From Minisyncoccia bacterium (lineage in GTDB: Bacteria > Patescibacteriota > Minisyncoccia > Phycocordibacterales > UBA9973), in NCBI GenBank assembly GCA_039809245.1, contig JBDHUP010000001.1, positions 30,934 through 94,933 on the forward strand: DNA of 64,000 nucleotides, given 5' to 3'. Each line of letters begins with the position of its first letter. The first letter of the stretch is position 1. Below, piece by piece: positions 28,510 to 58,818 of the stretch. The notes under the pieces are model-generated. The model saw only the letters and a list, made by a program, of their open reading frames with translations, ran no database searches and was not told the origin of the DNA. Made by a program: the position numbers and the translations under genes.

Positions 28510-28971
28510 CTATTTTACCATATTTTTGGAATCAAATTCATCTAAGTGCTTCTGTGCCTGCTCTAGAGTTTTTATTCGACATTCTTTTTTAAATCCAAAT
28601 GTATTACGAGCTTCTTCAAAAGTGGCCCACTTATATTCAAGGATTTCACCCTCTTGAATTTTAACCGTCTTATCTTTTACAATTCCAATAAAGTATTTAC
28701 ATACCCTATCTATTATTTTTCCATCAAGATTAAACTCATAACGTTCATCAATAAGTGGAACGTCTAACAATTCTATATTAGTAATTCCAGTCTCTTCTTT
28801 TAATTCACGCATAGCGATTAAAAGAGGATCTGTTTCACCTTCTTCTCGTTTTCCTTTAGGGTAACTCCAATTATTGAATTCCTTATTTTGAAAAAGTATA
28901 AGGAATTTATATTCACTTTCTTCCTTGAAAACTGTTACTACTCCATAAGCTATTTGTTCAATACGAGACAT
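28510..28971 (-). CDS. NUDIX hydrolase
   Basis: 153 aa. Nudix box GKREEGETDPLLIAMRELKEETGI (GX5EX7REUXEEXGU). The start lies 2 nt after the ileS stop. Confidence 0.75.
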   Translation of the reverse strand: MSRIEQIAYGVVTVFKEESEYKFLILFQNKEFNNWSYPKGKREEGETDPLLIAMRELKEETGITNIELLDVPLIDERYEFNLDGKIIDRVCKYFIGIVKDKTVKIQEGEILEYKWATFEEARNTFGFKKECRIKTLEQAQKHLDEFDSKNMVK

Positions 28972-28973
28972 AT

Positions 28974-31900
28974 TTATAGAATATTTATTCTGAATACTAA
29001 TTCATCGATTTTTACTTCAGTGCCTTTATTCTCTGAGAAGTTTAAATCTTTAGCTCCGACGACTTTCAATAAGTCAGGTTTGTATTTATTTATCAGATCC
29101 TCTCCTTCTTTGCTTGTCTCTATCTTAAGTTCAATTACATCACTAGGTGTAAGCTTAGCCTCTTTGCGCATATCTTGAATAGCGCGAACCAGTTCACGAT
29201 AATTACCTTCTTCTTTTAATTCTGGAGTTATAACTGTATCAAATACTATGTTTTCATCTTTACCTTTCTCTATACTCTTTACATTAAGCTCATCTTTTAT
29301 AAGTGCTTGATATTCAGCACTTGGAACTTCTGGGACATATAGAGTTGAGAGTGGTTGTCGGACAGGAATAACATTCTTCTTGCGAAGCATATTCCCTGCG
29401 CTACAATAGTCACGAACAATTTGCATCTCTTTAAATACTTCTTCTTTTACTTTTCCCGCTTCTGGCCATTCTGCTAAATGCACACTCTCTTTATCAGAAT
29501 CATTTTTAAGTTTCTGCCAGATATCCTCTGAGGCAAATGGCGCAAAAGGAGCCATAACTTTCACTAAAGTTTTCAACACATAGTAGAGGGTACGCTTTGC
29601 ATCTTCATCACCATCTTTGAGTCTATCTCTTGAGCGACGAACATACCAAGTCGAAAGCTCGTCGATGAACTCGCGCATCTCGCGAACTGGTTCTAAAAGT
29701 TTATAGCTATCCAAGTTCTTAGTTGTGTTTGCTAAGAGCTTGCTTAGTCGAGCGACAATCCACTGATCGAGAATATTGTCTGAGGTTTTATATTTCTCAC
29801 TTTCTAGATTCTTGTCTCTATATAGTTCGTAGAACGCGAGGACATTGTAAAGCAAGTTAAAGACTTGCTGTTGAAGTAGAACTACAGTCTTCTCGTCGAA
29901 GTTCTTGGATTCACCTGGCTGATTCACTGAGTACATCCATAAGCGTAGAGTATCCACTCCATACTTCTCTATCATAAGCCATGGATCGACAATATTACCC
30001 AAAGATTTAGACATCTTCTTCCCTTTCTCATCTAAGATATGACCTAGGCAAATAACGTTCTTATAGGCTTTACCGCGCCCTGTGAGCACACCTACAGCAT
30101 GAAGTGTATAGAACCAACCTCGAGTCTGATCTATCGCTTCTGATATATAGTCTGCTGGGAATCCTTTGCCATCTACCCATTTCTTATTCTCAAATGGATA
30201 GTGATCTTGCGCGAATGGCATCGCACCTGAGTCGAACCATACATCCATAACTTCTTTGACTCTTGTCATCTCCCCACCATCTTTATCTATCAACTTCACT
30301 TGGTCGATGAATGGCTTATGGAAGTCGAGTTCATAATCATCATTATGAGGAACTGGCACGAAAGGTAACTCTCGAACTTCTGCATTATCGAAACGTTTGA
30401 AGTCTGGGACGAACACATGAGTATTCGCAACTTGATAATTCTTATTCTCTGGGGTAAACAATCCTGAGTTCACAAAGCATAGCCAAGCAGGACCACCATG
30501 AGTAATGATTAATATATTCTTGTCTTTATATTTTTCTTCTAGTTCATATAGTGCTTCGGCGGTACGTCTTTGCACTTCTTTCAGTGATTCACCGCCACCG
30601 ATCTTCTGGTTGAACCAATCAGAACCTACATTTGTATACACATACTCATGATAAGCAGTCCAATTCTTACCATCGAAATCTCCAGGGTCTACTTCTTGGA
30701 ATCTTTTATCATAGATAATACTTTCTTTAGACAAGCCTAAAGTTTCCGCCACGATCTCGGCTGTCTCTTTCGTGCGAGTAAATGGTGAAGATACGATCAT
30801 ATCTATCTTTTTCTTTTTTAGTTCTTTCTCTGTTTTTTTCTTGACTTCGCTCTCACCTTCTTTAGTAAGGTTATCTGTTGCTTGATTCTTATAGCTAACA
30901 AGCTCTTTCAAGTTGCCTTCTGTTCCACCATGACGCATTACAAAATATTTGTTGCCAGAATTCTTAGTCTTTTCTTTCAGTTCATCGAGACTTCCTATCA
31001 CTTCGAATTCCCCGTCGGCTTTCTGCCAGATAGGAAGTGGGGTCCCCCAGTAACGTTCACGAGATATCGCCCAGTCTTTAATATCTTTAAGCCATTCACC
31101 AAAGCGCCCTTCACGTATATGTGATGGTTCCCAGTTTATAGTTTTATTCTCATTTATGAGTTGCTTCTTTATCTTCTCATCTGACATTCTAATATACCAA
31201 GAATCGCGCGCGTAGTAGATAAGTGGAGTCTTACATCGCCAACAGTGTGGGTATGAGTGTTCGTATTTCTCTTTCTTGAAAAGCAATCCTCTGTGTGCAA
31301 GGTCTTTAATAATATCTATAGCGACTTCTTCATCTTTTACAAATCGTCCTTCTAGAAAACCTGTACCTTTCACAAAGTGACCTGAATCATCAACAGTGTG
31401 CATTTTTGGCAATCCTAGCTTTGTTCCAAGCTCGAAGTCATCCTGACCGTACATGACAGCAGTATGTACAACACCAGTACCATCAGTCGTAGTCACGAAA
31501 TCTGCTGGGTAAACTTTGAATGCTTTACTTACATCCTCACCTTTTTTCTCTAGTGAATCTTTCAGGTATGGGTAAAGTGGTTCGTATTCTAAGCCAACTA
31601 ATCCACTACCTTTAACATCTTCAATATATTCTTGAACCCCTCCAAATGAGCTTTCCATTCTTTCCCTAGCACAAATCAAGTATTCTTTACCAACTTTAAC
31701 TTTTACATAATCAATATCTTTCCCCACAGCAAGAGCAACGTTTCCAGGTAATGTCCATGGAGTTGTCGTCCAAGCTAGGATGTAAGTGTTATCTTGTCCT
31801 ACAACTTTAAACTTTCCAGTTACCGATAAATCTTTATCATCTTGATATCCTTGTGCAAGTTCGTGCGATGAAAGAGCCGTACCACAGCGAGGACACCAAG

Positions 31901-32441
31901 GCACAACTTTGTAATCTTTATACAAAAGCTTCTTCTCTTCGACTTTCTTTAAGACGTTCCAGACAGATTCTATATAGTCATTATGATAAGTGACATATGG
32001 ATTCTCTTGATCAACCCAGTAGCCAATTCGCTTTGTAAACTTATTCCAGATATCTAGATACTCCCAGACACTTTCTTTACACTCTTTATTAAACTTCGCG
32101 ACACCGTACTCCTCAATCGCTTTCTTGGAATCGAGTCCGAGCTTCTTCTCGACTTGGAGTTCAACTGGAAGTCCATGAGTATCCCAGCCACCCTTGCGAC
32201 GTACATGGTATCCACGCATAGTCTTGTACCTTGGTATCGCATCTTTAAAAGCGCGAGCCTCTAAGTGATGAATACCTGGCTTACCATTAGCAGTCGGAGG
32301 GCCTTCGTAGAATACGAATTCACCCTCTGTCGATTTCTTCTCTAGTGATTTATTAAAAATACCCTGCTCTCGCCAAAATTCAAGTACAGCCTCTTCGCGA
32401 AGAGCTGCTACAGATTTATTATTTTTTTCAGTGTTATCCAT
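28974..32441 (-). CDS. ileS: Isoleucyl-tRNA synthetase (type 2) with an internal histidine-phosphatase (PGM/PhoE/CobC-like) domain insertion
   Basis: 1155 aa. PPTANGKPGIHH is the HIGH motif. CP1 editing motif TTTPWTLPGN. WAISRERYWGTPLP. DVWFDSG. KMSKS. A module spanning aa about 497-700 sits between WGTPLP and WFDSG. It carries FVMRHGGTEGN (the RHG catalytic His motif), SSPFTRTKETAEIVAETLGL, and IITHGGPAW (second His). Confidence 0.9.
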   Translation of the reverse strand: MDNTEKNNKSVAALREEAVLEFWREQGIFNKSLEKKSTEGEFVFYEGPPTANGKPGIHHLEARAFKDAIPRYKTMRGYHVRRKGGWDTHGLPVELQVEKKLGLDSKKAIEEYGVAKFNKECKESVWEYLDIWNKFTKRIGYWVDQENPYVTYHNDYIESVWNVLKKVEEKKLLYKDYKVVPWCPRCGTALSSHELAQGYQDDKDLSVTGKFKVVGQDNTYILAWTTTPWTLPGNVALAVGKDIDYVKVKVGKEYLICARERMESSFGGVQEYIEDVKGSGLVGLEYEPLYPYLKDSLEKKGEDVSKAFKVYPADFVTTTDGTGVVHTAVMYGQDDFELGTKLGLPKMHTVDDSGHFVKGTGFLEGRFVKDEEVAIDIIKDLAHRGLLFKKEKYEHSYPHCWRCKTPLIYYARDSWYIRMSDEKIKKQLINENKTINWEPSHIREGRFGEWLKDIKDWAISRERYWGTPLPIWQKADGEFEVIGSLDELKEKTKNSGNKYFVMRHGGTEGNLKELVSYKNQATDNLTKEGESEVKKKTEKELKKKKIDMIVSSPFTRTKETAEIVAETLGLSKESIIYDKRFQEVDPGDFDGKNWTAYHEYVYTNVGSDWFNQKIGGGESLKEVQRRTAEALYELEEKYKDKNILIITHGGPAWLCFVNSGLFTPENKNYQVANTHVFVPDFKRFDNAEVRELPFVPVPHNDDYELDFHKPFIDQVKLIDKDGGEMTRVKEVMDVWFDSGAMPFAQDHYPFENKKWVDGKGFPADYISEAIDQTRGWFYTLHAVGVLTGRGKAYKNVICLGHILDEKGKKMSKSLGNIVDPWLMIEKYGVDTLRLWMYSVNQPGESKNFDEKTVVLLQQQVFNLLYNVLAFYELYRDKNLESEKYKTSDNILDQWIVARLSKLLANTTKNLDSYKLLEPVREMREFIDELSTWYVRRSRDRLKDGDEDAKRTLYYVLKTLVKVMAPFAPFASEDIWQKLKNDSDKESVHLAEWPEAGKVKEEVFKEMQIVRDYCSAGNMLRKKNVIPVRQPLSTLYVPEVPSAEYQALIKDELNVKSIEKGKDENIVFDTVITPELKEEGNYRELVRAIQDMRKEAKLTPSDVIELKIETSKEGEDLINKYKPDLLKVVGAKDLNFSENKGTEVKIDELVFRINIL

Positions 32442-32729: not shown

Positions 32730-34424
32730 TTACATTTTCCCTGGAGTCTTAATTCCCAAAAGATAGAGACCATTTTTCATAGTCTGGTGGAATGCTTCCA
32801 CAAGTGCGATACGATAATTCGCATATGGATCACTCTTATTTATTATCTGTGTATTACCATAGAAAGTATTGAACGCACTCGCGAGCTCAGTAAGATATGT
32901 AGCGATATGATGTGGCTCAAGTTGTGTATATGATCGCTCTACCACTTCTCCGAATTGATATAACACTTTCTCTAGGTTTGTAACTTCATTCGGTATATCT
33001 TTATAAGCTGCGCAGATACCTTCTGCTTCGACCTTTTTCAAAATAGAATTGGCACGCACTGCAGTATACTGAAGATACGGACCAGAGTCCCCTTCAAATG
33101 AAATAGATTTCTCAAAATCATAAACAATATCTGATCCGAGTGAAGAGCGAAGTATAGAGTACTTCAATGCTGACACTCCGACAACTTTTGCTATCTCATC
33201 TTTCTCTTCTATTGATAACTCTCTATCAGACACCTTTTCATAGACTACATCCATAGAATCTTTCAAGAGTGACTCTCCTGTAACCACATTACCTTTTCTT
33301 GATGACATCTTACCAGAAGCTAGGCGCATCATGCCGTGAGTAATGTGCTTCATACGTGATTCGTAATCTGGATGGATAAGAGAGACAGCTTTCTGAACTA
33401 CTTTCATATATTCGCCTTGTTCTATAGCTGTAGTAATGATAGATATATCTGGATTCTCTTTCTCAAACTTTGTCACAGTGAGACCTACCTCTTTCGTCTC
33501 ATAAAGTGGAATACCTAGTGATGTGATAAAAACTCGAGTATGGAGCTTCGGGTCATAATTCTCAGCATGGAAGACTATCGCACCTTCTGACTCCTCAAAA
33601 ACTTTCCCAATATTCTCTCTGACAATTTTCTCTCCAATTGGCGCCATTTCACTCTCGAAGAAATAGTAGTCGAACTTTGTTCCGAGTGTTTTATATATTT
33701 CTTCAAATGCATCTAGAGTGACTTTCCTTCCCCAATCATATATCTTATTTATCTTTTCATCACTTCTGTCATAGACTTTCTTATTTATTTCATTTATTTC
33801 TTCTTTCCACTTTGGATCATTATCATACGCATCGGAACCTCGCGCATATTGCTCGCCAATCCAAAGCGCACTTTTGTTCTCATATGGTTCCACTGAATCC
33901 AGAATCCCCCAGATAGCTTTCGCCACATGTGGACCCACATCACCTTGATAGTTTGCTCTTACTGTCTTTGCACCTGAGAACTCTACAATGCGAGAAATAG
34001 ATTCACCAATAGCATTACTCATAAGGTGACCAATGTGAAAAGGCTTGAAAGGGTTCGGCTGAGTGTACTCCACCATTACCTTTTTATCTTTTAATATTTC
34101 ATTCTTCCCCCAATTATCTTTCTGTTTTAAAATATCTTTCACGCTATCTACAAAGAAATCATGATGTAGATAGAAGTTTATAAACCCAGCACCTGCAACT
34201 TCTACTTTCTGCATGCCTTTTATATTCTCTTTTTCAATTTCAGATTTTATCTTCTCTGCAAGTTCTTTAGGGTTTGTACTTAATTGCTTCGCATAAGCCA
34301 TGGCAACATTTGTAGAATAATCACCCATTTTCAAATCTGCTGGATGCTCAAGAATAACACTACCTGCTTCTATGCCGAGATTCTTCAGTGCACTTTTTAT
34401 GTGTTGTATAAGTTTTTCTTTCAT
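32730..34424 (-). CDS. argS: Arginyl-tRNA synthetase
   Basis: 564 aa. PNPFKPFHIGHLMSNAIG is the HIGH motif. MSSRKG is the KMSK-like motif. DALR anticodon-binding C-terminus. Confidence 0.9.
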   Translation of the reverse strand: MKEKLIQHIKSALKNLGIEAGSVILEHPADLKMGDYSTNVAMAYAKQLSTNPKELAEKIKSEIEKENIKGMQKVEVAGAGFINFYLHHDFFVDSVKDILKQKDNWGKNEILKDKKVMVEYTQPNPFKPFHIGHLMSNAIGESISRIVEFSGAKTVRANYQGDVGPHVAKAIWGILDSVEPYENKSALWIGEQYARGSDAYDNDPKWKEEINEINKKVYDRSDEKINKIYDWGRKVTLDAFEEIYKTLGTKFDYYFFESEMAPIGEKIVRENIGKVFEESEGAIVFHAENYDPKLHTRVFITSLGIPLYETKEVGLTVTKFEKENPDISIITTAIEQGEYMKVVQKAVSLIHPDYESRMKHITHGMMRLASGKMSSRKGNVVTGESLLKDSMDVVYEKVSDRELSIEEKDEIAKVVGVSALKYSILRSSLGSDIVYDFEKSISFEGDSGPYLQYTAVRANSILKKVEAEGICAAYKDIPNEVTNLEKVLYQFGEVVERSYTQLEPHHIATYLTELASAFNTFYGNTQIINKSDPYANYRIALVEAFHQTMKNGLYLLGIKTPGKM

Positions 34425-34846
34425 TACTTTTTCCCTGTGCTACCAAACATACCCTCACCACGAGCTGATTCACTTAATGTATCAGTTTCTTCTAGCTCAC
34501 ATATCTCAATAGGCATTATAACAAGTTGAGAGACTTTGTCTCCTTTCTCAAACACATAAGATTTATCTGACAAATTCACTAGGTGTGTATTGTATTCACC
34601 TCTGTACCCTGCATCAAATACTCCGCCCATCGTATGGAGGCCGGCTTTAGAAATACTAGATTTATCTTTCACTATAGCCGCATATCCATCCTCAAATTCA
34701 AAGGCAAACCCATGCCAGAACCTATAATGCTCACCTGGAGCAATCGTCACAGTCTCCATCGAATACAAATCCATCCCCACATCCCCTGGATGGGCGTATG
34801 TCGGCAATTTGGCATTATCTTTTAACCGTTTGACTTTGATTTTCAT
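34424..34846 (-). CDS. dut: dUTP diphosphatase (homotrimeric dUTPase)
   Basis: 140 aa. Motif I GDVGMDLYS. Motif III GVFDAGYRGE. Motif V RGEGMFGSTG. Confidence 0.85.
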   Translation of the reverse strand: MKIKVKRLKDNAKLPTYAHPGDVGMDLYSMETVTIAPGEHYRFWHGFAFEFEDGYAAIVKDKSSISKAGLHTMGGVFDAGYRGEYNTHLVNLSDKSYVFEKGDKVSQLVIMPIEICELEETDTLSESARGEGMFGSTGKK

Positions 34847-34881
34847 AATTTGTATTATAGCGTAAACTAAAACAATTTAAC

Positions 34882-35406
34882 ATGAAATCTATAATAGACA
34901 ATTACGATATAATCGTAATTAAAGCCGAAGAAATTTTTACAAAAGAATGTTTTGCACAAGGTACTGACGCTTGGAGAATTCTAAGACCAAAGTCTATATT
35001 AGACAGAATCTTTGAAATCGCCAGTGAGGTTAAATTTAATATCGAAAATAGTAATAAATTAAACAACAGAGAACTTGAAGCAAAACTTATCTCATTATTA
35101 AATACCTCCATAATAGCCCGTGTACAATTAACTCGCGGACTTACCACAACAGCTCCAATCGTACCAGAACGAGCTATCGTACTCTACAAACAGTCAGCTA
35201 ATCTTGCCCGCAAACAGGTGAAAATGCTGATAAGATCTTTGGATTCTATGAATCAGGTAAGCTTAACTTCATTTATGGAAGCCATCATTGAAAGAACAAA
35301 GGAAATGAAAGAACTGCTTGATAAAGGGATCACTGGAGTTCACTATTCCATAAGAAAATTAATGGATATTATAAACTTCTCCATCTTTGCTCTAATCTTA
35401 GAGTAG
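34882..35406 (+). CDS. Hypothetical protein
   Basis: 174 aa, helical, no motif recognised. Confidence 0.3.
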   Translation: MKSIIDNYDIIVIKAEEIFTKECFAQGTDAWRILRPKSILDRIFEIASEVKFNIENSNKLNNRELEAKLISLLNTSIIARVQLTRGLTTTAPIVPERAIVLYKQSANLARKQVKMLIRSLDSMNQVSLTSFMEAIIERTKEMKELLDKGITGVHYSIRKLMDIINFSIFALILE

Positions 35407-35458
35407 AGCAAGAAATAAAATATATGTTGCTGTATTACAAACAGCAACTTTTTTTATT

Positions 35459-36037
35459 TTAGATTTTTATTAATTCTCTTACTTTCTTTACTACTTGCTT
35501 AGGAGAAAGATTTGTATTGTCTATTTCAATATTATTCTTAACTGGTGCTGGTGTAGACCAGTCTTTCTTTTCTTTTAGAATTCTTTTCATTTCATTTGGA
35601 TCTGAAAGTTTTCTGAATTTTTTTCGTGACTTTCCTGATACACGTTTAATAAGCTCTGTATCACCAGCCTTCAAGTGAACAAAGTAAGCTCTACCTCCTT
35701 CTTTCTCCACATATGATTCTACTTTTTTCACAAACTTAGGATCAGTTAACCCTGTCATAGATACATATTCTGCAGAATAAGCATGGGTAGCAACTGTATT
35801 TAAATGACCTTTTGCAATTTCTTCAAATACATCCAATCTTAAACGCTCGACAAGGCGATTTAATTCAAGTGTTCCCCTTTTGAATAACTCTACCCCTAAA
35901 TCATAAGTATGGTGATTATGGAATAGTTTATATCCAGTCTGTTTCTGAAATTCTTTCGCTACAGTGTACTTACCCACAGCAAATGGTCCGTAAAATATAA
36001 CGACATTAAATTTTGGTTTTTTAATTACTTTTTTCAT
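35459..36037 (-). CDS. P-loop NTPase/kinase-like protein, possibly a nucleoside or nucleotide kinase
   Basis: 192 aa. Walker A GPFAVGKYT about 10 residues from the N-terminus, as in small kinases. The basic C-terminus and the substrate are unknown. Overlaps the upstream Nudix gene by 17 nt. Confidence 0.45.
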   Translation of the reverse strand: MKKVIKKPKFNVVIFYGPFAVGKYTVAKEFQKQTGYKLFHNHHTYDLGVELFKRGTLELNRLVERLRLDVFEEIAKGHLNTVATHAYSAEYVSMTGLTDPKFVKKVESYVEKEGGRAYFVHLKAGDTELIKRVSGKSRKKFRKLSDPNEMKRILKEKKDWSTPAPVKNNIEIDNTNLSPKQVVKKVRELIKI

Positions 36038-36575
36038 TTACTTTTAAAATAGCTTTTTTATATAAGTCTATAAACTCACTTGAAATAGTTTTTCTTATAA
36101 AATTTCTCTTTTCATCTTCAGATAAATTTTCTAACTGTTTTATTGAGTAACTTTCAAAACCAAGAGCATTTTCATCTTCAAGTTTTAAATCTTTTAAATC
36201 GCCAGAAAATAAGTAAGCAAATATTGTAGTGAATCTATTATTAATAAGTTTCGTAACTTCATCAAAAGATTTAGACCTTATCTTTTCGATAGGAATTAAT
36301 TTGCCAGATACATCAATACCAGTTTCTTCTAAAGATTCACGCTCTGCGGTTTTTTCATAAGTATCATTAGCAGAATCAACATGCCCTCCAACAGTTAGAT
36401 CTAGGAGGCCTGGATATGTTTCTTTATCTAAGCCACGTTTTTGAAAAATAATTTCATTATTTTTACTCACAAAAATCACATGTGCTTCCCTATGTAACAA
36501 GCCATCTTTGTGTATTATAGATCTTTCTTCTTCCCCTATTACCTCATCTTCCTCATTTACTATTGGAATCTTCAT
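36021..36575 (-). CDS. NUDIX hydrolase
   Basis: 184 aa. Nudix box GGHVDSANDTYEKTAERESLEETGI. Confidence 0.7.
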   Translation of the reverse strand: MKIPIVNEEDEVIGEEERSIIHKDGLLHREAHVIFVSKNNEIIFQKRGLDKETYPGLLDLTVGGHVDSANDTYEKTAERESLEETGIDVSGKLIPIEKIRSKSFDEVTKLINNRFTTIFAYLFSGDLKDLKLEDENALGFESYSIKQLENLSEDEKRNFIRKTISSEFIDLYKKAILKVNEKSN

Positions 36576-36713
36576 ATTATAAATATATCACGAATTCATT
36601 TTATTATTTATTTGACAAAAAGTTATATTTATGATAATGTATAGTAAATTATTTATTTGTGATTAGAGCAGACACATAAACAAGTCTTTTCTAATCACTA
36701 ATAAATAATACAT

Positions 36714-36929
36714 ATGGCACATTCAAGATCAAGGGACTATGAATTAGACCCAGGAATGAGAAGGCAATTCCCGCATGTTGAATTTAATTCAGCTCAAAAA
36801 ATAGTTACGACTCAATCTGTAGTTGTAAAAACTTCAAACGGTACAACCGCAGAAGAAAGAAAAGAAATACAGAAAAAAATCCTTGCTCTACCGGTAAACG
36901 AGCTTGAAAACCTTGTAGAGAAGATTTAA
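36714..36929 (+). CDS. Small hypothetical protein
   Basis: 71-aa ORF that stands alone on the plus strand. Weak call. Confidence 0.2.
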   Translation: MAHSRSRDYELDPGMRRQFPHVEFNSAQKIVTTQSVVVKTSNGTTAEERKEIQKKILALPVNELENLVEKI

Positions 36930-36980
36930 AAAATACAAAAAGTATTACGAGATGACCAATTATTCACTAGTTGGTCATTT

Positions 36981-37676
36981 TTATTTTTTAAGTATTCCTT
37001 TTACTTTTTTATAAACTATCTCGTGAATATCTTCGCGAGGGAGGACTTTGTTGTTTGTAGCACAATCAACTTTTAAGAAGTTCTTCTGAGTTTTCGAAAG
37101 CCAGAGAGCGCTCTTCCTAGAGTTCTCTAGGAATTCTACATCTTTCTCGTGGACGTCTTTCTTATTCCCTAGATACGTACGGACTGCATTTTTATTCCTT
37201 TCCTTCATAAGAGCTTTCGAAAGCTTGATCGGTAAGTCTAAGTAGAAAACTACATCTGGTTTCGGAATCTTGAAAACTTTATACTCCATTTCATCTAGCC
37301 ATTCTATGAATGCTTGGCGCTTCTTGGCGCTCTTGATCTTACCCCCTTGATGTATTTGGTTAGCACTGACGTAGCGGTTTGCAATAACTATATATCCTTT
37401 CTTAATCCAGCTTTCCATCTCCCTTTTTGATTCAGAGCGATCAGCTGCATAAAGCACAGAGGCAATCTTCGGGTGCACTTTCACGAAGTTGTAATACTGC
37501 TCGGAAAGACAGTGACCGATAAACTTCCCAAAGAAATTCTTATAGTATTCTGGGAAATCGACAGTCTTTATTGTGTATCCATCTTTCTTTAGACGTTTAA
37601 CTAAGAGAGCGACTTGCGTCGCCTTCCCACTTCCATCAGTGCCATCTATGACTATGAGTTTACCTTTTTTATTCAT
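36981..37676 (-). CDS. tmk: Thymidylate (dTMP) kinase
   Basis: 231 aa. P-loop IVIDGTDGSGKATQ. YAADRSES matches the Tmk LFAADR motif. ANRYVSANQIHQGG is a DRY-like motif. PDVVFYLDLP is the lid. Confidence 0.8.
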   Translation of the reverse strand: MNKKGKLIVIDGTDGSGKATQVALLVKRLKKDGYTIKTVDFPEYYKNFFGKFIGHCLSEQYYNFVKVHPKIASVLYAADRSESKREMESWIKKGYIVIANRYVSANQIHQGGKIKSAKKRQAFIEWLDEMEYKVFKIPKPDVVFYLDLPIKLSKALMKERNKNAVRTYLGNKKDVHEKDVEFLENSRKSALWLSKTQKNFLKVDCATNNKVLPREDIHEIVYKKVKGILKK

Positions 37677-38034
37677 ATCTTTGTTTTAAAAATTCATTTA
37701 CTTCTTCTAATATCTGTTTAAGCTCTAAAATTGTTTTAAACTTTTTAACTCTTTCAATTAAATCGTCATGAATAAAAACAAGTTGTTTGCAATCTTCTTT
37801 ATTTTTAATTAATGAAGATAACTCATATCCTTGTTGTTTTAAGTAATCTGCAAAAGGTAGATAAGTATAATGCTTATTTTTCTCTACAAGCTCTTCAATT
37901 GGTAAATCTTTATTTAAATCCCATCCAATTGTTAGAAATTGATTTTGTGTGTCATCAATTATCTCTAAAAATTGTTTCTGCGTTTCAACTATTTTGAGTG
38001 GATTCTGTTCGTTTTTATTTATTCCTTCATTCAT
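37669..38034 (-). CDS. Hypothetical protein
   Basis: 121 aa, acidic, no motif. Overlaps tmk by 8 nt. Confidence 0.3.
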   Translation of the reverse strand: MNEGINKNEQNPLKIVETQKQFLEIIDDTQNQFLTIGWDLNKDLPIEELVEKNKHYTYLPFADYLKQQGYELSSLIKNKEDCKQLVFIHDDLIERVKKFKTILELKQILEEVNEFLKQRYE

Positions 38035-38035
38035 A

Positions 38036-38461
38036 TTACTTTATACTATCATAATAATTGTTACCAGTTTTATAAGATTTAATTGCAAGCCCTGTCTGGA
38101 TAAACACAGGGTCAGGTAGGTCATCAAGATTGTACCACTGCCAGCTTTCTAATTTCTCAGGTTCAAGGACTTGTGGTTCACCACTCTCCCATTCTGCAAG
38201 TAGAACTATATTCACATAGTGCTTTGGAGCATAGTGAAAAATATTTCCCACATGCAAGAATTTAATATTCTTTATTTTTATTCCCGCCTCTTCCATCACT
38301 TCTCTTTTAGCACAATCTTCAAATGATTCCATATACTCCAAATGCCCTCCAGGGAATGCATATTCTCCTATTCCATGTGAGACTTTCCTTTGACCCATTA
38401 AGACTTTTCCATCTTTTAGAATCATTACCCCCATTCCAACTTTTGGTCTTTTGTCTTCCAT
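38036..38461 (-). CDS. NUDIX hydrolase
   Basis: 141 aa. Nudix box GGHLEYMESFEDCAKREVMEEAGI. Confidence 0.7.
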   Translation of the reverse strand: MEDKRPKVGMGVMILKDGKVLMGQRKVSHGIGEYAFPGGHLEYMESFEDCAKREVMEEAGIKIKNIKFLHVGNIFHYAPKHYVNIVLLAEWESGEPQVLEPEKLESWQWYNLDDLPDPVFIQTGLAIKSYKTGNNYYDSIK

Positions 38462-38462
38462 A

Positions 38463-38927
38463 TTATGAGCTTAATTCTTTTAAGGCTTCTTCGGCATAGA
38501 ATTTAATATTTGGAACTAAATCCATAGTTTCTAAATCTTCCTTAGTGCACCATTTCAGTTCGACGCCTTTTTCATGATCTAGGACTGAATCTGAGACTTC
38601 ATCTGTATCACAAGTAGCAAAGTAAACAAACACTACATGCTCATGAGTTGGTCCAGTTCTGTGACGACCTAAATACTGAGGAGGCATAAGTATTTGAAAA
38701 TCTTTTTCGCCAAAATTAGGAATTTCTTTCCCGACAAGCTTTACATCAAGGCCTACTTCTTCTTTCACTTCTCGATAAGCAGCTTCTATTGGATCTTCAT
38801 CGAGTTCTATATGTCCACCAACCGAACACCAAATATTGTATTTATCATGCATACGAAGAAGGACTTTATTCTTATGAACAATAAAGACTTCTACTGTAAA
38901 ATCGATTTTCTCGTGTATATGTGGCAT
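38463..38927 (-). CDS. NUDIX hydrolase
   Basis: 154 aa. Nudix box GGHIELDEDPIEAAYREVKEEVGL. Confidence 0.7.
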   Translation of the reverse strand: MPHIHEKIDFTVEVFIVHKNKVLLRMHDKYNIWCSVGGHIELDEDPIEAAYREVKEEVGLDVKLVGKEIPNFGEKDFQILMPPQYLGRHRTGPTHEHVVFVYFATCDTDEVSDSVLDHEKGVELKWCTKEDLETMDLVPNIKFYAEEALKELSS

Positions 38928-38928
38928 A

Positions 38929-39261
38929 TTATAATTCTAAAATTTTTATTCCTCTTTTCATAGCAACAAAGCAGTAGCCCCATAGGAATGGAAACCACAG
39001 TGGCATTATACCTAAAAGAGAATTCCTAATAAAAGTCTCCACCCCAGTACTTACAAATATAAATTCAGCGATAATCATCACAAAGAATCCAAAGAAGAAT
39101 ACCATTACCTCCTTCTTCTCTCTTTTAATTATGAAAGAAATTATAATCATCACAGCATATACAGCAGTCAGGATATAGTCATCATTAATCCTAGTAATAA
39201 GCCACATCATTACTAATATAGGAATTGCATTTATTAATATTTGTATGGCTTTACTTTTCAT
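38929..39261 (-). CDS. Small membrane protein, 3 TM helices
   Basis: 110 aa, hydrophobic. Start codon abuts the Nudix stop. Confidence 0.35.
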   Translation of the reverse strand: MKSKAIQILINAIPILVMMWLITRINDDYILTAVYAVMIIISFIIKREKKEVMVFFFGFFVMIIAEFIFVSTGVETFIRNSLLGIMPLWFPFLWGYCFVAMKRGIKILEL

Positions 39262-40521
39262 TTATACAAAACTCTTAGGGATAGGGTGCTTATGAGCGAG
39301 AGCTTTGACTTTCGCGCGGATTTCGACTTTCTTCTCGGCATTATCTTTATTCTTTAGTGTCTCTATTAATAGCTTTGCGACTTCGGCGCAATCTTCTTCT
39401 TTAAATCCTCTTGTTGTTATCGCTGGTGTACCAAAGCGAATTCCAGATGGATCAAGTGGCTTGCGAGTGTCTCCAGCTATTGAGTTCATATTGAGCGTTA
39501 TACCTACTTCATCAAGCACTGTCTGTGCCTCTTTACCGGTGACTCCAAGTGAACCGAAAACATCAGCAAGGATGAGGTGGTTATCTGTTCCCCCACCGAT
39601 CATTCGAACTCCTTCATCTTTGAGAACTTTCTCCATTGCTTTCGCATTCTTCAAGACTTGTTCAGCATAAACTTTGAACTCTGGACGGAGAGCTTCACCG
39701 AAGGCAATCGCTTTGGCAGCTATCGTATGCATATGTGGGCCTCCTTGAATTCCAGGAAAAATAGATTTATCAATCTTCTTCGCGATCTCTTCACTCTCAC
39801 GAGTTAGTATCATACCACCGCGTGGACCACGAAGAGTCTTGTGGGTTGTGGTTGTAATAATATCAAATCCGAAATCAAATGGGTTCGGAAGTGCTTTTGC
39901 AGCGATAAGTCCTGCGATGTGCGCCATGTCAGCCATTGTTATCGCTCCGACTTCTTTCGCAATATCTACAAACTTCTTATAATCGAGACTTCTCGGATAC
40001 GCAGAGAATCCTGCAAGAATAATCTTCGGCTTCTTCTCGATAGCTACTTGGCGAAGGGCATCGTAATCTATCTCGCCAGTTTCTGGGTCTTTCATTTTGT
40101 AAGTGACAAAGTTATAAATCTTCGCTGGGAGAGTCATCGGGTGCCCGTGAGTAAGATGCCCGCCATGAGAGAGGTCCATCCCGAGGACTGTATCACCTGG
40201 TTCAAGTAAAGCTGCATAGACAGCCAAGTTTGCAGGTGCACCAGAGTGAGGCTGAACATTAGCAAATTTACAATTGAAAAGTTCGCAAGCCCGTGCAATA
40301 GCTAAGCGCTCCACTTGGTCGGTAAAATCTTGCCCACCATAGTAACGGCGACCAGGGTAACCTTCAGAATACTTATTTGTAAAAACTGAGCCATTGGCTT
40401 CACGAACCGCCATAGACACGTAATTCTCAGATGGTATAAGTTCAAGGCCATCTTCCTCTCTTAATGTTTCCCCTTCTATTGCTTGCTGTATTTCTTTGTC
40501 TTGTTTTTCAATGTAATTCAT
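39262..40521 (-). CDS. glyA: Serine hydroxymethyltransferase
   Basis: 419 aa. SENYVSMAVREANGSVFTNKYSEGYPGRRYYGG. PLP-lysine region TTTTHKTLRGPRGG. Confidence 0.9.
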   Translation of the reverse strand: MNYIEKQDKEIQQAIEGETLREEDGLELIPSENYVSMAVREANGSVFTNKYSEGYPGRRYYGGQDFTDQVERLAIARACELFNCKFANVQPHSGAPANLAVYAALLEPGDTVLGMDLSHGGHLTHGHPMTLPAKIYNFVTYKMKDPETGEIDYDALRQVAIEKKPKIILAGFSAYPRSLDYKKFVDIAKEVGAITMADMAHIAGLIAAKALPNPFDFGFDIITTTTHKTLRGPRGGMILTRESEEIAKKIDKSIFPGIQGGPHMHTIAAKAIAFGEALRPEFKVYAEQVLKNAKAMEKVLKDEGVRMIGGGTDNHLILADVFGSLGVTGKEAQTVLDEVGITLNMNSIAGDTRKPLDPSGIRFGTPAITTRGFKEEDCAEVAKLLIETLKNKDNAEKKVEIRAKVKALAHKHPIPKSFV

Positions 40522-40572
40522 ATCCTGATTTTAGCATGTTGAAGAAGAAAAGAAAAAAGGTATAATGAGCCT

Positions 40573-41514
40573 ATGAAAGAAGAGCATGTAGACCTAATAT
40601 ATCTAGACCTTTTAGAGCGAATAAAGCGCGAAGGAGTAAAGAAGACAGATAGAACTGGTACTGGCACATTATCGCTTCTAGGTCATCAGATGCGTTTTGA
40701 TTTATCAAAAGGATTCCCTCTCTTAACTACTAAAAAAGTTCCTATAAAAGCTATTATCCATGAACTACTGTGGTTCATGCGCGGAGATACAAATCTTAAA
40801 TATTTAGCCGAGAATAATGTTCACATTTGGGACGAATGGCCATATAAAGCATATTTAATAAAAAATAAAATAGAAGTTCCTAAAACTGGAAGCGATGAAT
40901 GGAATACTGGTATAAAAGAATTTGTAGAAAAAATAAAGACTGATGAATCTTTTGCAAAAGAGTACGGAAATCTTGGACCTATCTATGGATACCAGTGGCG
41001 TAATTGGCCAACTCCAAACGGAGAGCACATTGATCAATTAAAAAATGTTATTGAACAAATAAAGAAATCTCCCGATTCAAGAAGGTTAATAGTATCTGCA
41101 TGGAATGTAGCTGATATAGACGAAATGGCAAAGGCTGGACTTCCCCCATGTCACTGCCTTTTTCAATTCTATGTTGCAAATGGAAAACTTTCATGCCAGC
41201 TTTATCAGCGCAGTTGTGACACATTCCTAGGAGTACCATTCAACATTGCATCGTACGCACTTCTTACTATGATTATCGCTCAAGTTACCGGACTTGAAGC
41301 CGGAGAGTTCGTCTGGACTGGTGGTGACACTCACTTATATTTAAACCATTTAGAGCAAGCTGATCTCCAGCTCTCAAGAAAGAATGATATCCGCCCGATG
41401 CCAACTATAAAAATAAACCCTGATAAAAAAAATGTGGAAGATTTCACTATCGATGATTTCGAATTAGTCGACTATAACCCTCACGATGCTATTAAAGCAC
41501 CTATAGCTGTATAA
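40573..41514 (+). CDS. thyA: Thymidylate synthase (ThyA type) with lineage-specific insertions
   Basis: 313 aa. RTGTGTLS. Active site [19 protein letters not shown]. Confidence 0.9.
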
Positions 41515-41516
41515 AT

Positions 41517-42026
41517 ATGATAATCTCTCTCATCGCTGCGGTTGCCAAAAATGGAGTCATAGGTGGAGGTAATACTCTGCTTTGGGACATACCAGAAGAT
41601 ATGAAGCACTTCCGTGATAAGACCCGAGGGCATACAGTTATAATGGGGCGTAAAACATATGAGAGTATTGGTAACCCATTACCAAATAGGAAGAACATAA
41701 TTATCACTCGTGACCTAAACTATATACAGCCTGGGATAGAGATTGTTAATTCATTCAATGAAGCTCTACGTCTAGCAAGCCTTGAACAAGGAAAAGGGTT
41801 CGAGGAGAATCAGGATGAAGTAGAGATATTTGTTATTGGTGGTGGAGAAATATACAAACAAGCAATAGAGAAAGCAAATAAATTATACATCACAGAAATA
41901 CATAAAGATTTCGAAGGCGACACACTATTCCCTACTATAGATAAAGAAATCTGGAAAGAAACTGATCGAGAAGATTACACCAATGAACCTATCCCATTTT
42001 CTTTTGTAGAATATAGAAAGAAATAA
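41517..42026 (+). CDS. folA: Dihydrofolate reductase
   Basis: 169 aa. MIISLIAAVAKNGVIGGGNTLLWDIPEDMKHFRDKTRGHTVIMGRKTYESIG. VIGGGEIY. Confidence 0.85.
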   Translation: MIISLIAAVAKNGVIGGGNTLLWDIPEDMKHFRDKTRGHTVIMGRKTYESIGNPLPNRKNIIITRDLNYIQPGIEIVNSFNEALRLASLEQGKGFEENQDEVEIFVIGGGEIYKQAIEKANKLYITEIHKDFEGDTLFPTIDKEIWKETDREDYTNEPIPFSFVEYRKK

Positions 42027-42092
42027 AAAAAACCCATAGCGATCAAATCGCTACAGATTTTAAAGGGTTGAGTATTTTGATTAGTTTCCCCA

Positions 42093-42377
42093 TTAGTTTT
42101 CCCAGAGGATATCACCGTTTATTCCTTTGATAATATCTATATGCTCGGGGTTAATCCTAAACACTTCTTCTTTGTTTATTAAAATAACTACCCCGCCAGA
42201 TACATGGGCATACTCCAGTTTTACATCCTTATCCTCTGTAAAAATACGGAGTATATTGCCTTCTGTTTTTTGAATATACAAATTGCTGGGTAAATTAGCA
42301 AAAGCTTTTAGCGCTTCTGAATTTTCAAAGAAGATAACAAAGAAGTTGCCTTCAAAGTGCATTGATGTCTTTTTCAT
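42093..42377 (-). CDS. Hypothetical protein
   Basis: 94 aa, no motif. Confidence 0.3.
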   Translation of the reverse strand: MKKTSMHFEGNFFVIFFENSEALKAFANLPSNLYIQKTEGNILRIFTEDKDVKLEYAHVSGGVVILINKEEVFRINPEHIDIIKGINGDILWEN

Positions 42378-42469
42378 GACTGACTTTTTAATTTTTAGAT
42401 AATATTGTTTCTATAACACTCTACATCTTTCTAAAAATAAGTCAATAAAATTGATTATCGTAGTTTTTA

Positions 42470-42796
42470 CTATGGATCAATATCTGTTTTAACTCTAATG
42501 AAAACATCGGTGCCATCTGGGGCTTTAGTCTTTGTGTATTTTCTATTTTTATTAATTTCAATTTTTCGAACTAATTCACTTTCTAAATCATAGCCAAGTT
42601 GCTCAGACATCCCAAGCAAAAAGATAGCGACATCAGCAAACTCTTCAGCAACACCATCTTGTTTTTTATTCCACTTGGAAAATGCCTCTGAAAGTTCTTC
42701 ATGGGCTCGACAAAACTCATTAGCCATTTCCATACTAAATCCTTTCTCTATCTTATTTCGCATCACCTCTTTTTGTAATTCTTTTAGGTCTACCAT
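42470..42796 (-). CDS. MazG-like nucleotide pyrophosphohydrolase (small all-alpha NTP-PPase)
   Basis: 108 aa. EELSEAFSKW...AEEFADVAIFLLGMSEQLGYDLESELVRKIEINKNR fits the MazG EExxE/D...EE.aDv consensus. Confidence 0.6.
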   Translation of the reverse strand: MVDLKELQKEVMRNKIEKGFSMEMANEFCRAHEELSEAFSKWNKKQDGVAEEFADVAIFLLGMSEQLGYDLESELVRKIEINKNRKYTKTKAPDGTDVFIRVKTDIDP

Positions 42797-42799
42797 ATA

Positions 42800-43300
42800 T
42801 TATTGGTCTTTATAAGATTCAACTTCATTATTAATAATAACTAGTTCAATACCAGCTTCTTTAAAAATTTCTTTTGATCTTTTTGTTGCATGATAATCTT
42901 TCAATGCAACAATCCTAATAATCCCTGCATTAATTACCATCTTAGCGCATATGTAACAAGGAACCATCTTACAGTAGAGAGTCGCTCCTTCTGTGGCAAC
43001 TCCGACTCTTGCAGCATTAGCTATCGCATTCTGCTCAGCATGAGCAGTACGAATACAATGCCTTGAAACTGTGCCATCTTCCTGTGTAACAGTATGCATT
43101 TCATGACCAACATCGTCACAATGTGGAAGCCCTACAGGTGAACCAGCGTGACCAGTAGAAATTATTCTTTTGTTTTTAGTGATAACTGCTCCTGCATAAC
43201 CCCTGTCGCAAGTACCACGAGTTCCAACCATATCAGCCATTTGGATAAAGTATTCATCCCATGATGGCCTCTTGTGTGAAGTTGTCTCTTTGTCTGACAT
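42800..43300 (-). CDS. dCMP deaminase (cytidine/deoxycytidylate deaminase zinc-binding family)
   Basis: 166 aa. HAEQNAIANAAR (H-A-E) and PCYICAKMV (PCxxC) are the zinc ligands. 1-nt to 3-nt spacing to the MazG gene. Confidence 0.8.
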   Translation of the reverse strand: MSDKETTSHKRPSWDEYFIQMADMVGTRGTCDRGYAGAVITKNKRIISTGHAGSPVGLPHCDDVGHEMHTVTQEDGTVSRHCIRTAHAEQNAIANAARVGVATEGATLYCKMVPCYICAKMVINAGIIRIVALKDYHATKRSKEIFKEAGIELVIINNEVESYKDQ

Positions 43301-57423: not shown

Positions 57424-58818
57424 TTAATTCACAGTTATTGTTACATCATCAGAGTTTGTATCACCATAATCATCTGTGACAGTTAATCTAAAGACGTAAG
57501 TTCCTGGAGTAATATCATCTACATCCGTTATATCCGATGTTGGATCGACGATTGTCGCTGGTCCACCTGATACCTTAGTCCATAAAAAAGAATCAATATA
57601 CCCATCACTATCGGTTCCGTTACCATTTAAAGTCAAATATCCTTCTGGTAAAGTAATAGTTTGATCTGGGCCTGCATCCGCTACTGGAGGGTTATTTGTA
57701 GTTACATTTTCTACTGTGACCGTAATCGTATCAGTCCCAGTTGCTCCTTGATTATCGGTTACTGTAAATTTGAATACATAAGTCCCTGCGGACAAATTAT
57801 CCACATCTGTAGTATCAGAAGATGGGTTGGATATTGTAGCAGATCCACCTGAGATTTTTGTCCAATTATAAGAAACTATACTTCCGTCTGAATCATTTCC
57901 ATAACCACTCAGAGTAACAAAATTATCAGGCATAGTTATCGTTTCATCTGGACCTGCGTCTGCATAAGGAGGATTGTTAGATTGAGGTGATGATTCATCG
58001 TTTACAATTACACTAACATCATCATAAGATGTATCGTTTTTATTATCAACAACTGTCAGTCTAAATACATATGAACCTAATACTAAATTATTTATTTCTG
58101 TACTAGAAGAATTAGGTGAAACTATATTTGCAGATCCACCTGAAATTTTTGTCCAATTATAAGAAACTATACTTCCATCAGAGTCGCTTCCTGAACCAAG
58201 TAGAGTAACTGATGACGTCGGAAGGGTTACATATTTATCAGGCCCGGCACTTGCAAAAGGTGGGATATTATTTATTCCTTGTTGTGAAGTACTTGTTGTA
58301 GTTTTTAGGGTAGAAGCAGAAGTAGATTTATTTGAAGCTATTTTGGTTTTTGTAGTTTTAGTTGTAGCTGGGAAACCGCTTGCTGTTACATATAATTCAT
58401 CGGCCGATTTATATCCTTCTGAATCTGTTACGACCAGACGAAATATATATATTCCATTTTGAAGGTTTTTAACAACAGTAGTACTTGAATCTGGCGAAAC
58501 AATGGTGGCCTTACCACCAGAGAGTTTGAACCACATATAATTAACCCACCCTCCATCCTTTGTCGTAGCCGACCCTTTTAGAGTAAAAGAGTTGGTCGGA
58601 TATTTAACCACAATATCAGGACCAGCATCTACTTTAATATTACTTAATGAATCGTTGATAACTAGACTGTCTTCGATATCAGAAGTTTGTTTATCTAAAA
58701 AAGGTATCTTTCCTAGACCTGGATGTGTTTCTCTGAGGTAAAAGATACTACCAACAAATATAATTGCTGTAAAAAATACAAGGATGAAAGTTGATATAGA
58801 TCCTTTATTTAATTTCAT
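57424..58818 (-). CDS. Membrane-anchored protein with four tandem PKD-like domains
   Basis: 464 aa. N-terminal TM. Four about 95-aa repeats, each DAGPD.T..LP...V.L.G.G.DSDGSIVSYNWTKISGG.A.I..P.S..T.V.NL..G.Y.F...VTD. Confidence 0.7.
   Translation of the reverse strand: MKLNKGSISTFILVFFTAIIFVGSIFYLRETHPGLGKIPFLDKQTSDIEDSLVINDSLSNIKVDAGPDIVVKYPTNSFTLKGSATTKDGGWVNYMWFKLSGGKATIVSPDSSTTVVKNLQNGIYIFRLVVTDSEGYKSADELYVTASGFPATTKTTKTKIASNKSTSASTLKTTTSTSQQGINNIPPFASAGPDKYVTLPTSSVTLLGSGSDSDGSIVSYNWTKISGGSANIVSPNSSSTEINNLVLGSYVFRLTVVDNKNDTSYDDVSVIVNDESSPQSNNPPYADAGPDETITMPDNFVTLSGYGNDSDGSIVSYNWTKISGGSATISNPSSDTTDVDNLSAGTYVFKFTVTDNQGATGTDTITVTVENVTTNNPPVADAGPDQTITLPEGYLTLNGNGTDSDGYIDSFLWTKVSGGPATIVDPTSDITDVDDITPGTYVFRLTVTDDYGDTNSDDVTITVN
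57430..58330. repeat. Tandem, roughly 290-bp DNA repeats encoding the PKD domains
   Basis: Near-identical blocks gatccacctgagatttttgtccaattataagaaactatacttcc recur at about 57845 and about 58134. Confidence 0.5.

Follow-up and report, generated by a model that had tools for sequence, protein, structure and literature searches.

A conserved multi-operon gene neighborhood for probable thymidylate supply in a Minisyncoccia bacterium

Gene content of the island

Patescibacteria are ultra-small, mostly uncultured, and host dependent, and their nucleotide economy is poorly understood. Here, we describe a dense island of thymidylate-synthesis and nucleotide-pool genes at positions 34424 to 43300 of a 64,000-nt stretch of DNA from a Minisyncoccia bacterium (the window, to which all coordinates refer unless a locus is named). 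Genes were called from a listing of open reading frames (ORFs) and from Pfam and NCBIfam profile searches with curated cutoffs (Table 1). Throughout, dcd denotes the dCMP deaminase gene, mazG the gene of a MazG-like protein, and DCD dCTP deaminase. The closest relatives of the ThyA protein (74 to 93% identity) are from metagenome-assembled genomes labelled Nomurabacteria, Paceibacteria, or Patescibacteria, and the organism is, as judged from its sequence, a Nomurabacteria-type Patescibacterium.

All the genes named in an original prediction made on this DNA were recovered in place in the ORF listing and by the Pfam/NCBIfam searches; its inventory of the island had missed five ORFs, i.e., DUF1599, the 71-aa ORF, the 121-aa ORF (orf121), the 110-aa membrane protein (mem110), and the 94-aa ORF (orf94). 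Homology also supports the near-complete route from dC/dU via dUMP and dTMP to dTDP that had been read from these genes, together with a folate cycle of serine hydroxymethyltransferase (SHMT), ThyA, and dihydrofolate reductase (DHFR). The ThyA translation shows the PCH motif with its catalytic Cys, FNIASY with the Asn that confers dUMP specificity, and a long insert resembling that of Lactobacillus casei ThyA. The zinc/catalytic motifs HAE (HAEQNA) and PCxxC (PCYICA) are present in the translated dCMP deaminase, which scores 119 bits on the ComEB equivalog model TIGR02571, under its cutoff of 219. Two nucleoside salvage genes, deoD and cdd, lie 19 kb away from the island. Profile searches of the window proteins detected neither nrd nor ndk, no genes of de novo nucleotide synthesis, and none of folE, folB, folK, and folP, and there is no DCD gene in the island.

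TABLE 1 Positions of the island features and of associated genes in the window
Feature	Position	Strand	Evidence or remark
Nudix#4, Ap4A-hydrolase/RppH-like	28510-28971	-	PF00293; downstream of ileS, outside the island
dut, predicted trimeric dUTPase (dUTP to dUMP plus pyrophosphate)	34424-34846	-	TIGR00576, 111.9 bits (cutoff 102.55); PF00692
DUF1599, two-repeat helical protein	34882-35406	+	PF07659, E = 2.6e-10
Terminator-like hairpin and T-run	35426-35448	+	Where the DUF1599 and P-loop kinase genes converge
P-loop kinase, small-molecule type, uncharacterized family	35459-36037	-	AAA_18, 22 bits (below the 29.4 cutoff)
Nudix#1, YfcD/DR0079/IDI-like	36021-36575	-	PF00293, E = 1.9e-11
Strain-specific 405-bp spacer	36576-36980		71-aa ORF and hairpin inside
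71-aa ORF (orf71)	36714-36929	+	No family match
Terminator-like hairpin, 14-bp stem	36949-36981		After the 71-aa ORF
tmk, predicted dTMP kinase (dTMP to dTDP)	36981-37676	-	TIGR00041, 84.7 bits (cutoff 83.25, marginal); PF02223
orf121, 121-aa ORF	37669-38034	-	24.6% GC; single homolog, in L004
Nudix#2, AtNUDX1/NUDT15 family	38036-38461	-	Canonical Nudix box
Nudix#3, weakly NudB-like	38463-38927	-	Nearest homolog 3f6a; canonical Nudix box
mem110, predicted 110-aa membrane protein	38929-39261	-	Homologs in L001 and L007
glyA, predicted SHMT (CH2-THF supply)	39262-40521	-	NF000586, 576 bits (cutoff 335)
Divergent glyA/thyA intergenic region, 51 bp	40522-40572		Promoter-like site towards thyA at 40539-40566 (consensus match only)
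thyA, predicted dUMP-methylating thymidylate synthase	40573-41514	+	TIGR03284, 467 bits (cutoff 108)
folA, predicted DHFR	41517-42026	+	PF00186, 193 bits (cutoff 25)
Terminator-like hairpin, 15 pairs	42029-42061		Between convergent folA and orf94
orf94, 94-aa ORF	42093-42377	-	Confined to this species
mazG, MazG-like all-alpha NTP pyrophosphohydrolase	42470-42796	-	PF12643, 28.3 bits (cutoff 27)
dcd, predicted dCMP deaminase (dCMP to dUMP)	42800-43300	-	PF00383, 76 bits
Promoter-like site upstream of dcd	43334-43307		
deoD, nucleoside salvage	62233-62934	-	NF004489, 324 bits
cdd, nucleoside salvage	63084-63536	+	TIGR01354, 127.5 bits

Transcription units

Where the original prediction had suggested one co-regulated unit, the island consists of about six tightly packed units on both strands and, judged by this layout, is probably not one co-regulated unit. 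Analysis of spacing, strand, and hairpins located three strand switches; between units, the genes diverge or converge or a terminator-like hairpin intervenes, whereas within units they overlap or are separated by 0 to 3 bp. The units comprise (i) dcd and mazG (3-bp gap), perhaps including orf94; (ii) thyA and folA (2-bp gap); (iii) six genes running from glyA (first) through mem110, Nudix#3, Nudix#2, and orf121 to tmk (last), with gaps of 0 to 1 bp, as on both sides of mem110, or an 8-nt overlap; (iv) Nudix#1 and the P-loop kinase gene, which overlap by 17 nt; (v) DUF1599, alone on the plus strand; and (vi) dut and argS, with a 1-nt overlap of the dut stop and the argS start. Rfam searches for riboswitches and RNA regulators (tetrahydrofolate [THF], ZTP, and others) at the gathering threshold or E ≤ 1 returned nothing in the island except a single SraG match at chance level.

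Conservation of the neighborhood in relatives

The window proteins were mapped onto a comparison set of 80 thyA-centered loci, one per species (these and the additional loci are designated below by L numbers), and retention was scored as presence within 10 kb of thyA among the loci of species-level relatives that were long enough to score. About 10 Nomurabacteria-type species have in common the scaffold argS, dut, (variable), tmk, (variable), glyA, thyA, folA, (variable), mazG, dcd. Retention near thyA was 0.95 for folA, 0.73 for dut, 0.71 for dcd, 0.68 for both mazG and glyA, and 0.50 for tmk, compared to 0.13 for htrA, 0.21 for rce1, and 0.08 for orf167, three unrelated genes that are physically closer. 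Because the pathway genes are kept in 50 to 95% of the relatives versus 8 to 21% for the closer unrelated genes, the clustering is selected and not due to chance. The same block was thus looked for in related genomes and its co-localization found to be conserved, so that the possibility, raised with the original prediction, of a clustering absent from every relative falls away.

Three more loci, found independently via homologs of the P-loop kinase, have the order glyA, (variable), tmk, P-loop kinase, dut, argS, ileS, and a fourth independent locus, found via a homolog of the MazG-like protein (L089), has all the scaffold genes with the kernel rearranged. This kernel, the most stable part of the neighborhood, is formed by thyA, folA, dcd, and mazG, which occur together in three gene orders, that of L089 and L090 being mazG> <folA <thyA dcd> (arrowheads indicate direction). 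In 17 of the 18 relatives having either dcd or mazG the two genes are adjacent, with their order flipped in two, and their distance to folA in relatives ranges from 6 to 5516 bp.

Loci from outside the Patescibacteria retrieved with the same query carry only thyA, with or without folA, within 10 kb. In the Saccharimonadia, eight loci have thyA, folA, an unannotated ORF, a dCTP-deaminase-like gene, and tmk, and in Moraniibacteria the set is thyA, folA, an AAA_17/DNMK-like kinase gene, and tmk. By its sequence, the dCTP-deaminase-like gene of the Saccharimonadia would lead from dCTP to dUMP by another route, encoded at the corresponding position; located between folA and tmk, it resembles in its predicted role the Gram-negative-type mono- or bifunctional dCTP deaminase route, whereas the window has the dCMP deaminase, the MazG-like protein, and Dut instead. 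The unannotated Saccharimonadia ORF (121 to 127 aa; L037:11421-11804, with homologs in L043, L046, L050, and L051) is always found between folA and the dCTP-deaminase-like gene.

Several other insertions were observed among the relatives. In some, thyA and folA are split by an insert, either a 227-aa DUF6875 protein (L007:11258-11941 and L009:11675-12358) or a 565- to 594-aa protein that has treble-clef zinc fingers at each terminus and may be a mobile element (L011:8401-10098, L022:11307-13085, and L023:7281-9065). Adjoining folA or glyA are homologs of the CofE-like F420-0:gamma-glutamyl ligase (L005:11976-12671, L006:2626-3321, and L017:12294-13043) and short-chain dehydrogenases (L009:7988-8713 and L087:3434-4165), which may substitute for enzymes of folate polyglutamylation or for pteridine reductase. 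At the position held in the window by DUF1599, the clusters of L086 (1409-1888, minus strand) and L089 (14930-15412, minus strand) include, on the opposite strand, genes for small PaaX_M-domain proteins that may be regulators.

Variable slots, P-loop kinase, and DUF1599

A contig from another sample (L001) represents a near-identical strain, 98 to 99% identical to the window over 14 kb save for two segments. In the first, window positions 34887 to 36978, with DUF1599, the P-loop kinase gene, Nudix#1, and orf71, are replaced in L001 by 822 bp carrying only a DUF1599 allele of 27% identity (L001:2399-2926); in the second, positions 37682 to 38025 (orf121) are missing. The tmk gene is 94.5% identical between the two strains, compared to 98 to 99% for the flanks, and the strain-variable genes have the lowest GC content of the region (25 to 34%). 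The P-loop kinase gene, Nudix#1, DUF1599, and orf121 are accessory genes. The strain-specific 405-bp spacer at 36576 to 36980, with orf71 and its hairpin, could be a small gene or a small RNA.

Depending on the species or strain, the slots contain several Nudix subfamilies, small P-loop kinases, nucleoside-2-deoxyribosyltransferase-like (NDT-like) proteins, CYTH proteins, and DUF1599. When 114 ORFs from the corresponding slots of relatives were screened with Pfam, the tally was 13 NUDIX, 8 dCTP-deaminase-like, 5 AAA_18, 3 DNMK, 3 nucleoside 2-deoxyribosyltransferase (Nuc_deoxyrib_tr), 3 CYTH, 2 Maf, and 2 HAD domains.

The P-loop kinase belongs to a family with 55 homologs, characterized by a Walker A motif of the adenylate kinase type, GxxxVGK[YFHL]T, and by invariant residues R132, R138, and K143, including lid arginines. 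Its orthologs invariably occupy the interval from tmk to dut, in some cases with a 32-nt overlap with tmk. The AF2 model (pLDDT 92.6) has an NMP-kinase-like fold, which Foldseek matched to the putative kinase 2rhm, to Giardia deoxyadenosine kinase, and to adenylate, CMP, and gluconate kinases. NMP, gluconate, and shikimate kinases share this generic fold (TM 0.46 to 0.69), and many small-molecule kinases were matched about equally. A search of the PDB with the sequence gave no match. Its absence from the near-identical strain favors a role of this protein as a salvage or accessory kinase over one in an essential step.

DUF1599, which bears the Pfam name "nucleotide modification associated domain 1," has a degenerate second repeat. 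A full HMMER search of 1.8 billion representative proteins recovered 91 representative clusters, all at most 31% identical, and a word-index search returned only the query itself. No second Pfam domain was detected in the longer homologs, the profile matched nothing in the PDB, and no literature on DUF1599/Nmad1 function was found. A kinship to the MazG-like profile was considered and rejected (hhalign probability 0.1).

Nudix genes

The four Nudix genes, originally predicted to be paralogs, encode proteins that all score above 21.1 bits on PF00293 and that share 23 to 37% pairwise identity, only over 50 to 100 residues around the Nudix box. The box (GX5EX7REUXEEXGU) is exact in Nudix#2 and Nudix#3, two residues longer in Nudix#1, and one longer in Nudix#4, and each protein has a different closest PDB family. 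Comparison with hidden Markov models and PDB entries, a check proposed along with the original prediction, assigned them to four distinct types, and by these sequence comparisons they belong to four subfamilies and are not recent paralogs.

Nudix#1 matches YfcD (2e-9) and DR0079 (2e-6) in the PDB, and its orthologs occupy the same slot in L004, L016, L026, and L086, the last of which carries five Nudix genes in its cluster. Nudix#2, the only one of the four having characterized homologs with (d)NTPase activity, aligns in phmmer searches of the PDB with AtNUDX1 (7e-31 over residues 5 to 121; about 47% identity, judged by eye) and with human NUDT15, also known as MTH2 (3e-25). With a near full-length alignment and the canonical box, Nudix#2 clearly falls into the AtNUDX1/NUDT15 family; it stands under the MutT equivalog cutoff. 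The family is promiscuous, acting on 8-oxo-dGTP, dGTP, thio-dGTP, dihydroneopterin triphosphate (DHNTP), and isoprenoid diphosphates. Nudix#3 is closest to an uncharacterized Clostridium structure, 3f6a, and Nudix#4 matches CT771 (1.5e-8) and NUDT2 (6e-8).

None of the four proteins reached an equivalog cutoff. For the MutT 8-oxo-dGTPase models (TIGR00586/NF008044), the best score was that of Nudix#2 (47.3 versus 97.9 bits), with the others at 24 bits or less; for the NudB/FolQ model NF006961, the best named model of Nudix#3, this protein scored 42.6 versus 103 bits. Across the comparison set, Nudix genes are enriched inside the scaffold, at 12 of 97 ORFs versus 3 of 262 outside it (odds ratio 12, p = 2e-5), the loci being phylogenetically non-independent. 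A pool-sanitizing role of the Nudix genes is plausible.

The MazG-like protein

The MazG-like protein has 1304 homologs, the top 120 of them at least 75% identical, and in an alignment of 20 homologs the residues of its EExxE(12-28)EExxD motif (E33, E34, E37, E51, E52, and D55) are invariant. PDB and fold comparisons linked it weakly to SSO3215, MazZ, DR2231, BcMazG, and DCTPP1; the sequence similarity to DCTPP1 is marginal and not significant (E = 0.19 to 0.27 in the PDB search), and the fold matches of the monomer model (pTM 0.50) are weak and do not discriminate between substrates. The top fold match was MazZ of cyanophage S-2L (7ody; probability 0.91, E = 0.09, TM 0.41 to 0.46), an enzyme that acts on dGTP/dATP for the PurZ pathway, whereas there is no PurZ here. 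MazZ and gp56 of phage T4 are precedents for a pyrophosphatase whose role in a pathway is to provide a dNMP as substrate.

The gene is the most faithful partner of dcd, thyA, and folA, which favors a role of its product in the pathway (dCTP to dCMP) over one in general housecleaning. A role in supplying dCMP is suggested because the linkage with dcd, thyA, and folA survives rearrangements and because a dCTP-deaminase-like gene replaces mazG in another lineage. Human DCTPP1 provides dCMP for thymidylate synthesis (PMC7162842). As in that DCTPP1-DCTD route (PMC7162842), both enzyme superfamilies are present here, genetically linked, with an all-alpha NTP pyrophosphohydrolase proposed to feed a dCMP deaminase; unlike it, the link rests here on gene adjacency and not on measured nucleotide pools. 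As to the five housecleaning pyrophosphatases of the original prediction, the genes are there, yet the MazG-like protein is more likely a pathway enzyme, Nudix#1 is accessory, and only Nudix#2 has characterized homologs with (d)NTPase activity.

Interpretation and alternative explanations

Overall, we regard the island, with a probability of roughly 70%, as a lineage-conserved neighborhood of adjacent small operons that produce dTMP and dTDP and sustain the folate cycle, accompanied by swappable nucleotide-pool enzymes. According to the annotations, dUMP would be supplied both by Dut from dUTP and by the dCMP deaminase from dCMP; ThyA would methylate it with CH2-THF (methylene-THF) from SHMT, DHFR would regenerate THF, and Tmk would make dTDP, with the distant deoD and cdd adding nucleoside salvage. 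The MazG-like protein would hydrolyze dCTP, or a close analogue, and thereby provide the deaminase with dCMP, much like DCTPP1 in human cells, a step to which the gene context points. The slots from tmk to dut and from glyA to tmk would house mutually exchangeable accessory enzymes acting in (deoxy)nucleotide salvage or trimming.

In terms of gene organization, the neighborhood extends the familiar thyA-folA pairing, specifically in this lineage, to several operons for thymidylate supply with swappable accessory enzymes. As in the bacterial thyA-folA operon, folA follows thyA by 2 bp, and the pair was found in 95% of the relatives and also, among the loci retrieved, in many unrelated bacteria; unlike in that operon, the pair is embedded here in a larger set that includes glyA, tmk, dut, dcd, and the MazG-like gene. 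All the components are from known enzyme superfamilies, and thyA-folA operons, phage T4, and human DCTPP1 provide precedents for the logic of the arrangement, so the result refines existing knowledge and does not overturn it. No description of such a cluster in the candidate phyla radiation (CPR) or Parcubacteria was found in the literature open to searching. The comparison separates the core from the strain-variable parts and yields concrete candidates, i.e., the MazG-like protein for a possible role in dCMP supply, a new family of small kinases linked with tmk and dut, and four distinct Nudix types.

A more specific version, which we put forward only tentatively and regard as less likely than not, is that a MazG-like dCTP pyrophosphatase and the dCMP deaminase form a dedicated module from which Nomurabacteria-type Patescibacteria draw much of their dUMP, a bacterial counterpart of human DCTPP1-DCTD, and that the P-loop family is a new deoxynucleoside or deoxynucleotide kinase processing scavenged host deoxynucleosides together with the swappable Nudix enzymes. 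If so, the two-enzyme module would explain the origin of dCMP in bacteria that use dCMP deaminase.

A number of observations weigh against the proposed thymidylate-supply neighborhood. The relatives are not independent samples, and part of the conservation is therefore shared descent. The MazG-like protein could equally hydrolyze dUTP or noncanonical dNTPs, and, like the Nudix proteins and the P-loop kinase, it is placed by sequence and fold at the superfamily or family level only. Some of the slot cargo in relatives is unrelated to nucleotides (DEAD helicase, short-chain dehydrogenase, Vut_1, regulators). The reading of the variable slots in terms of nucleotides is not secure either, because the Nudix#2 family also takes DHNTP and isoprenoid diphosphates and because Nudix#1 is YfcD/IDI-like.

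These same Nudix affinities lend themselves to an alternative that we consider improbable, though the best placed of those weighed here, namely, that some or all of the Nudix genes serve the folate or isoprenoid side, e.g., as a DHNTP pyrophosphatase (the FolQ/NudB role) next to glyA, thyA, and folA. The likeness of Nudix#2 to AtNUDX1, the NudB DHNTP diphosphatase as the best named model of Nudix#3, and the resemblance of Nudix#1 to IDI/YfcD would all be accommodated, as would the co-transcription of Nudix#2 and Nudix#3 with glyA, judged by spacing. However, the NudB and MutT scores of these proteins fall far under the equivalog cutoffs, the window is devoid of the four fol genes searched for, and the slots of relatives hold clearly nucleotide-directed enzymes (NDT-like, DNMK-like, and Maf).

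It is unlikely, and somewhat more so, that the clustering is a by-product of a small, dense genome and shared ancestry, with no selection involved. The genome is compact, unrelated genes are interleaved with the pathway genes, argS overlaps dut, the clusters of relatives include a DEAD helicase, regulators, and transporters, and all the informative relatives are from one class-level lineage. A mere by-product is nevertheless difficult to reconcile with the contrast in retention between pathway genes and closer unrelated neighbors, with the survival of the four-gene kernel through three permutations, or with the analogous clusters that other Patescibacteria lineages build from different parts (the dCTP-deaminase-like gene, or the AAA_17/DNMK-like kinase gene by tmk).

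Nucleotide-depleting defense systems exist, and the strain-variable slots might in principle be a defense or counter-defense hotspot that manipulates the nucleotide pool against phages, with genes present, absent, or replaced by another allele between strains 98 to 99% identical, a rapidly diverging DUF1599, and variable genes of low GC content. We view this as quite unlikely: PADLOC gave no meaningful match, only generic Nudix (PDC-S07) and deaminase-domain matches, and in several species the P-loop kinase orthologs without exception form operons with tmk and dut, consistent with metabolism.

Least probable of all, indeed very improbable, is a phage-derived or mobile base-modification module of the T4-like or Nmad type: despite the Pfam name of DUF1599, the match of the MazG-like protein to the phage family phrog_3301, the strain-variable, low-GC DUF1599/kinase/Nudix#1 segment, and an enzyme set (NTP pyrophosphatase producing dNMP, dCMP deaminase, thymidylate synthase, DHFR, and dNMP kinase) like that of the T4 dNTP-precursor genes (gp56 dCTPase/dUTPase, cd, td, frd, and gp1), the locus is, unlike that of T4, cellular and vertically inherited, its core being conserved among the housekeeping genes argS, ileS, and htrA, and in relatives secE-nusG-rplK, its ThyA is of the canonical dUMP type and not of the hydroxymethylase type, as indicated by the thymidylate synthase equivalog score and the retained dUMP-specifying Asn, and there is no integrase, phage structural gene, glycosyltransferase, methyltransferase, or close phage match. 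A phage origin was rejected on these searches, in which the PHROGs matches were generic and tblastn of the MazG-like protein against 50,697 phage records gave no close match and seven weak hits at 29 to 43% identity.

IleS, Nudix#4, and the rest of the window

Nudix#4 is separated from ileS by a 2-bp gap and belongs with this gene, not with the island. Aminoacyl-tRNA synthetases make Ap4A, and Nudix#4 may form a functional pair with IleS, which is itself unusual. The 1155-aa IleS protein (28974 to 32441, minus strand) contains at residues 500 to 679, in the middle of its catalytic domain, a complete histidine-phosphatase domain (PGM-like; PF00300, E = 1.2e-29) with the RHG motif and the second His motif intact. 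No paper on such an insertion was found in the literature; it is kept in the relatives L002, L086, and L087 and in one ERZ1426829 contig.

The remainder of the window (GC content of the window, about 35%) consists of ordinary housekeeping genes and genes for large predicted surface proteins. The latter, encoded on the minus strand at 7237 to 10659 and 57424 to 58818, have Ig-like, PKD, and SPRY domains and are typical of episymbiont adhesins.

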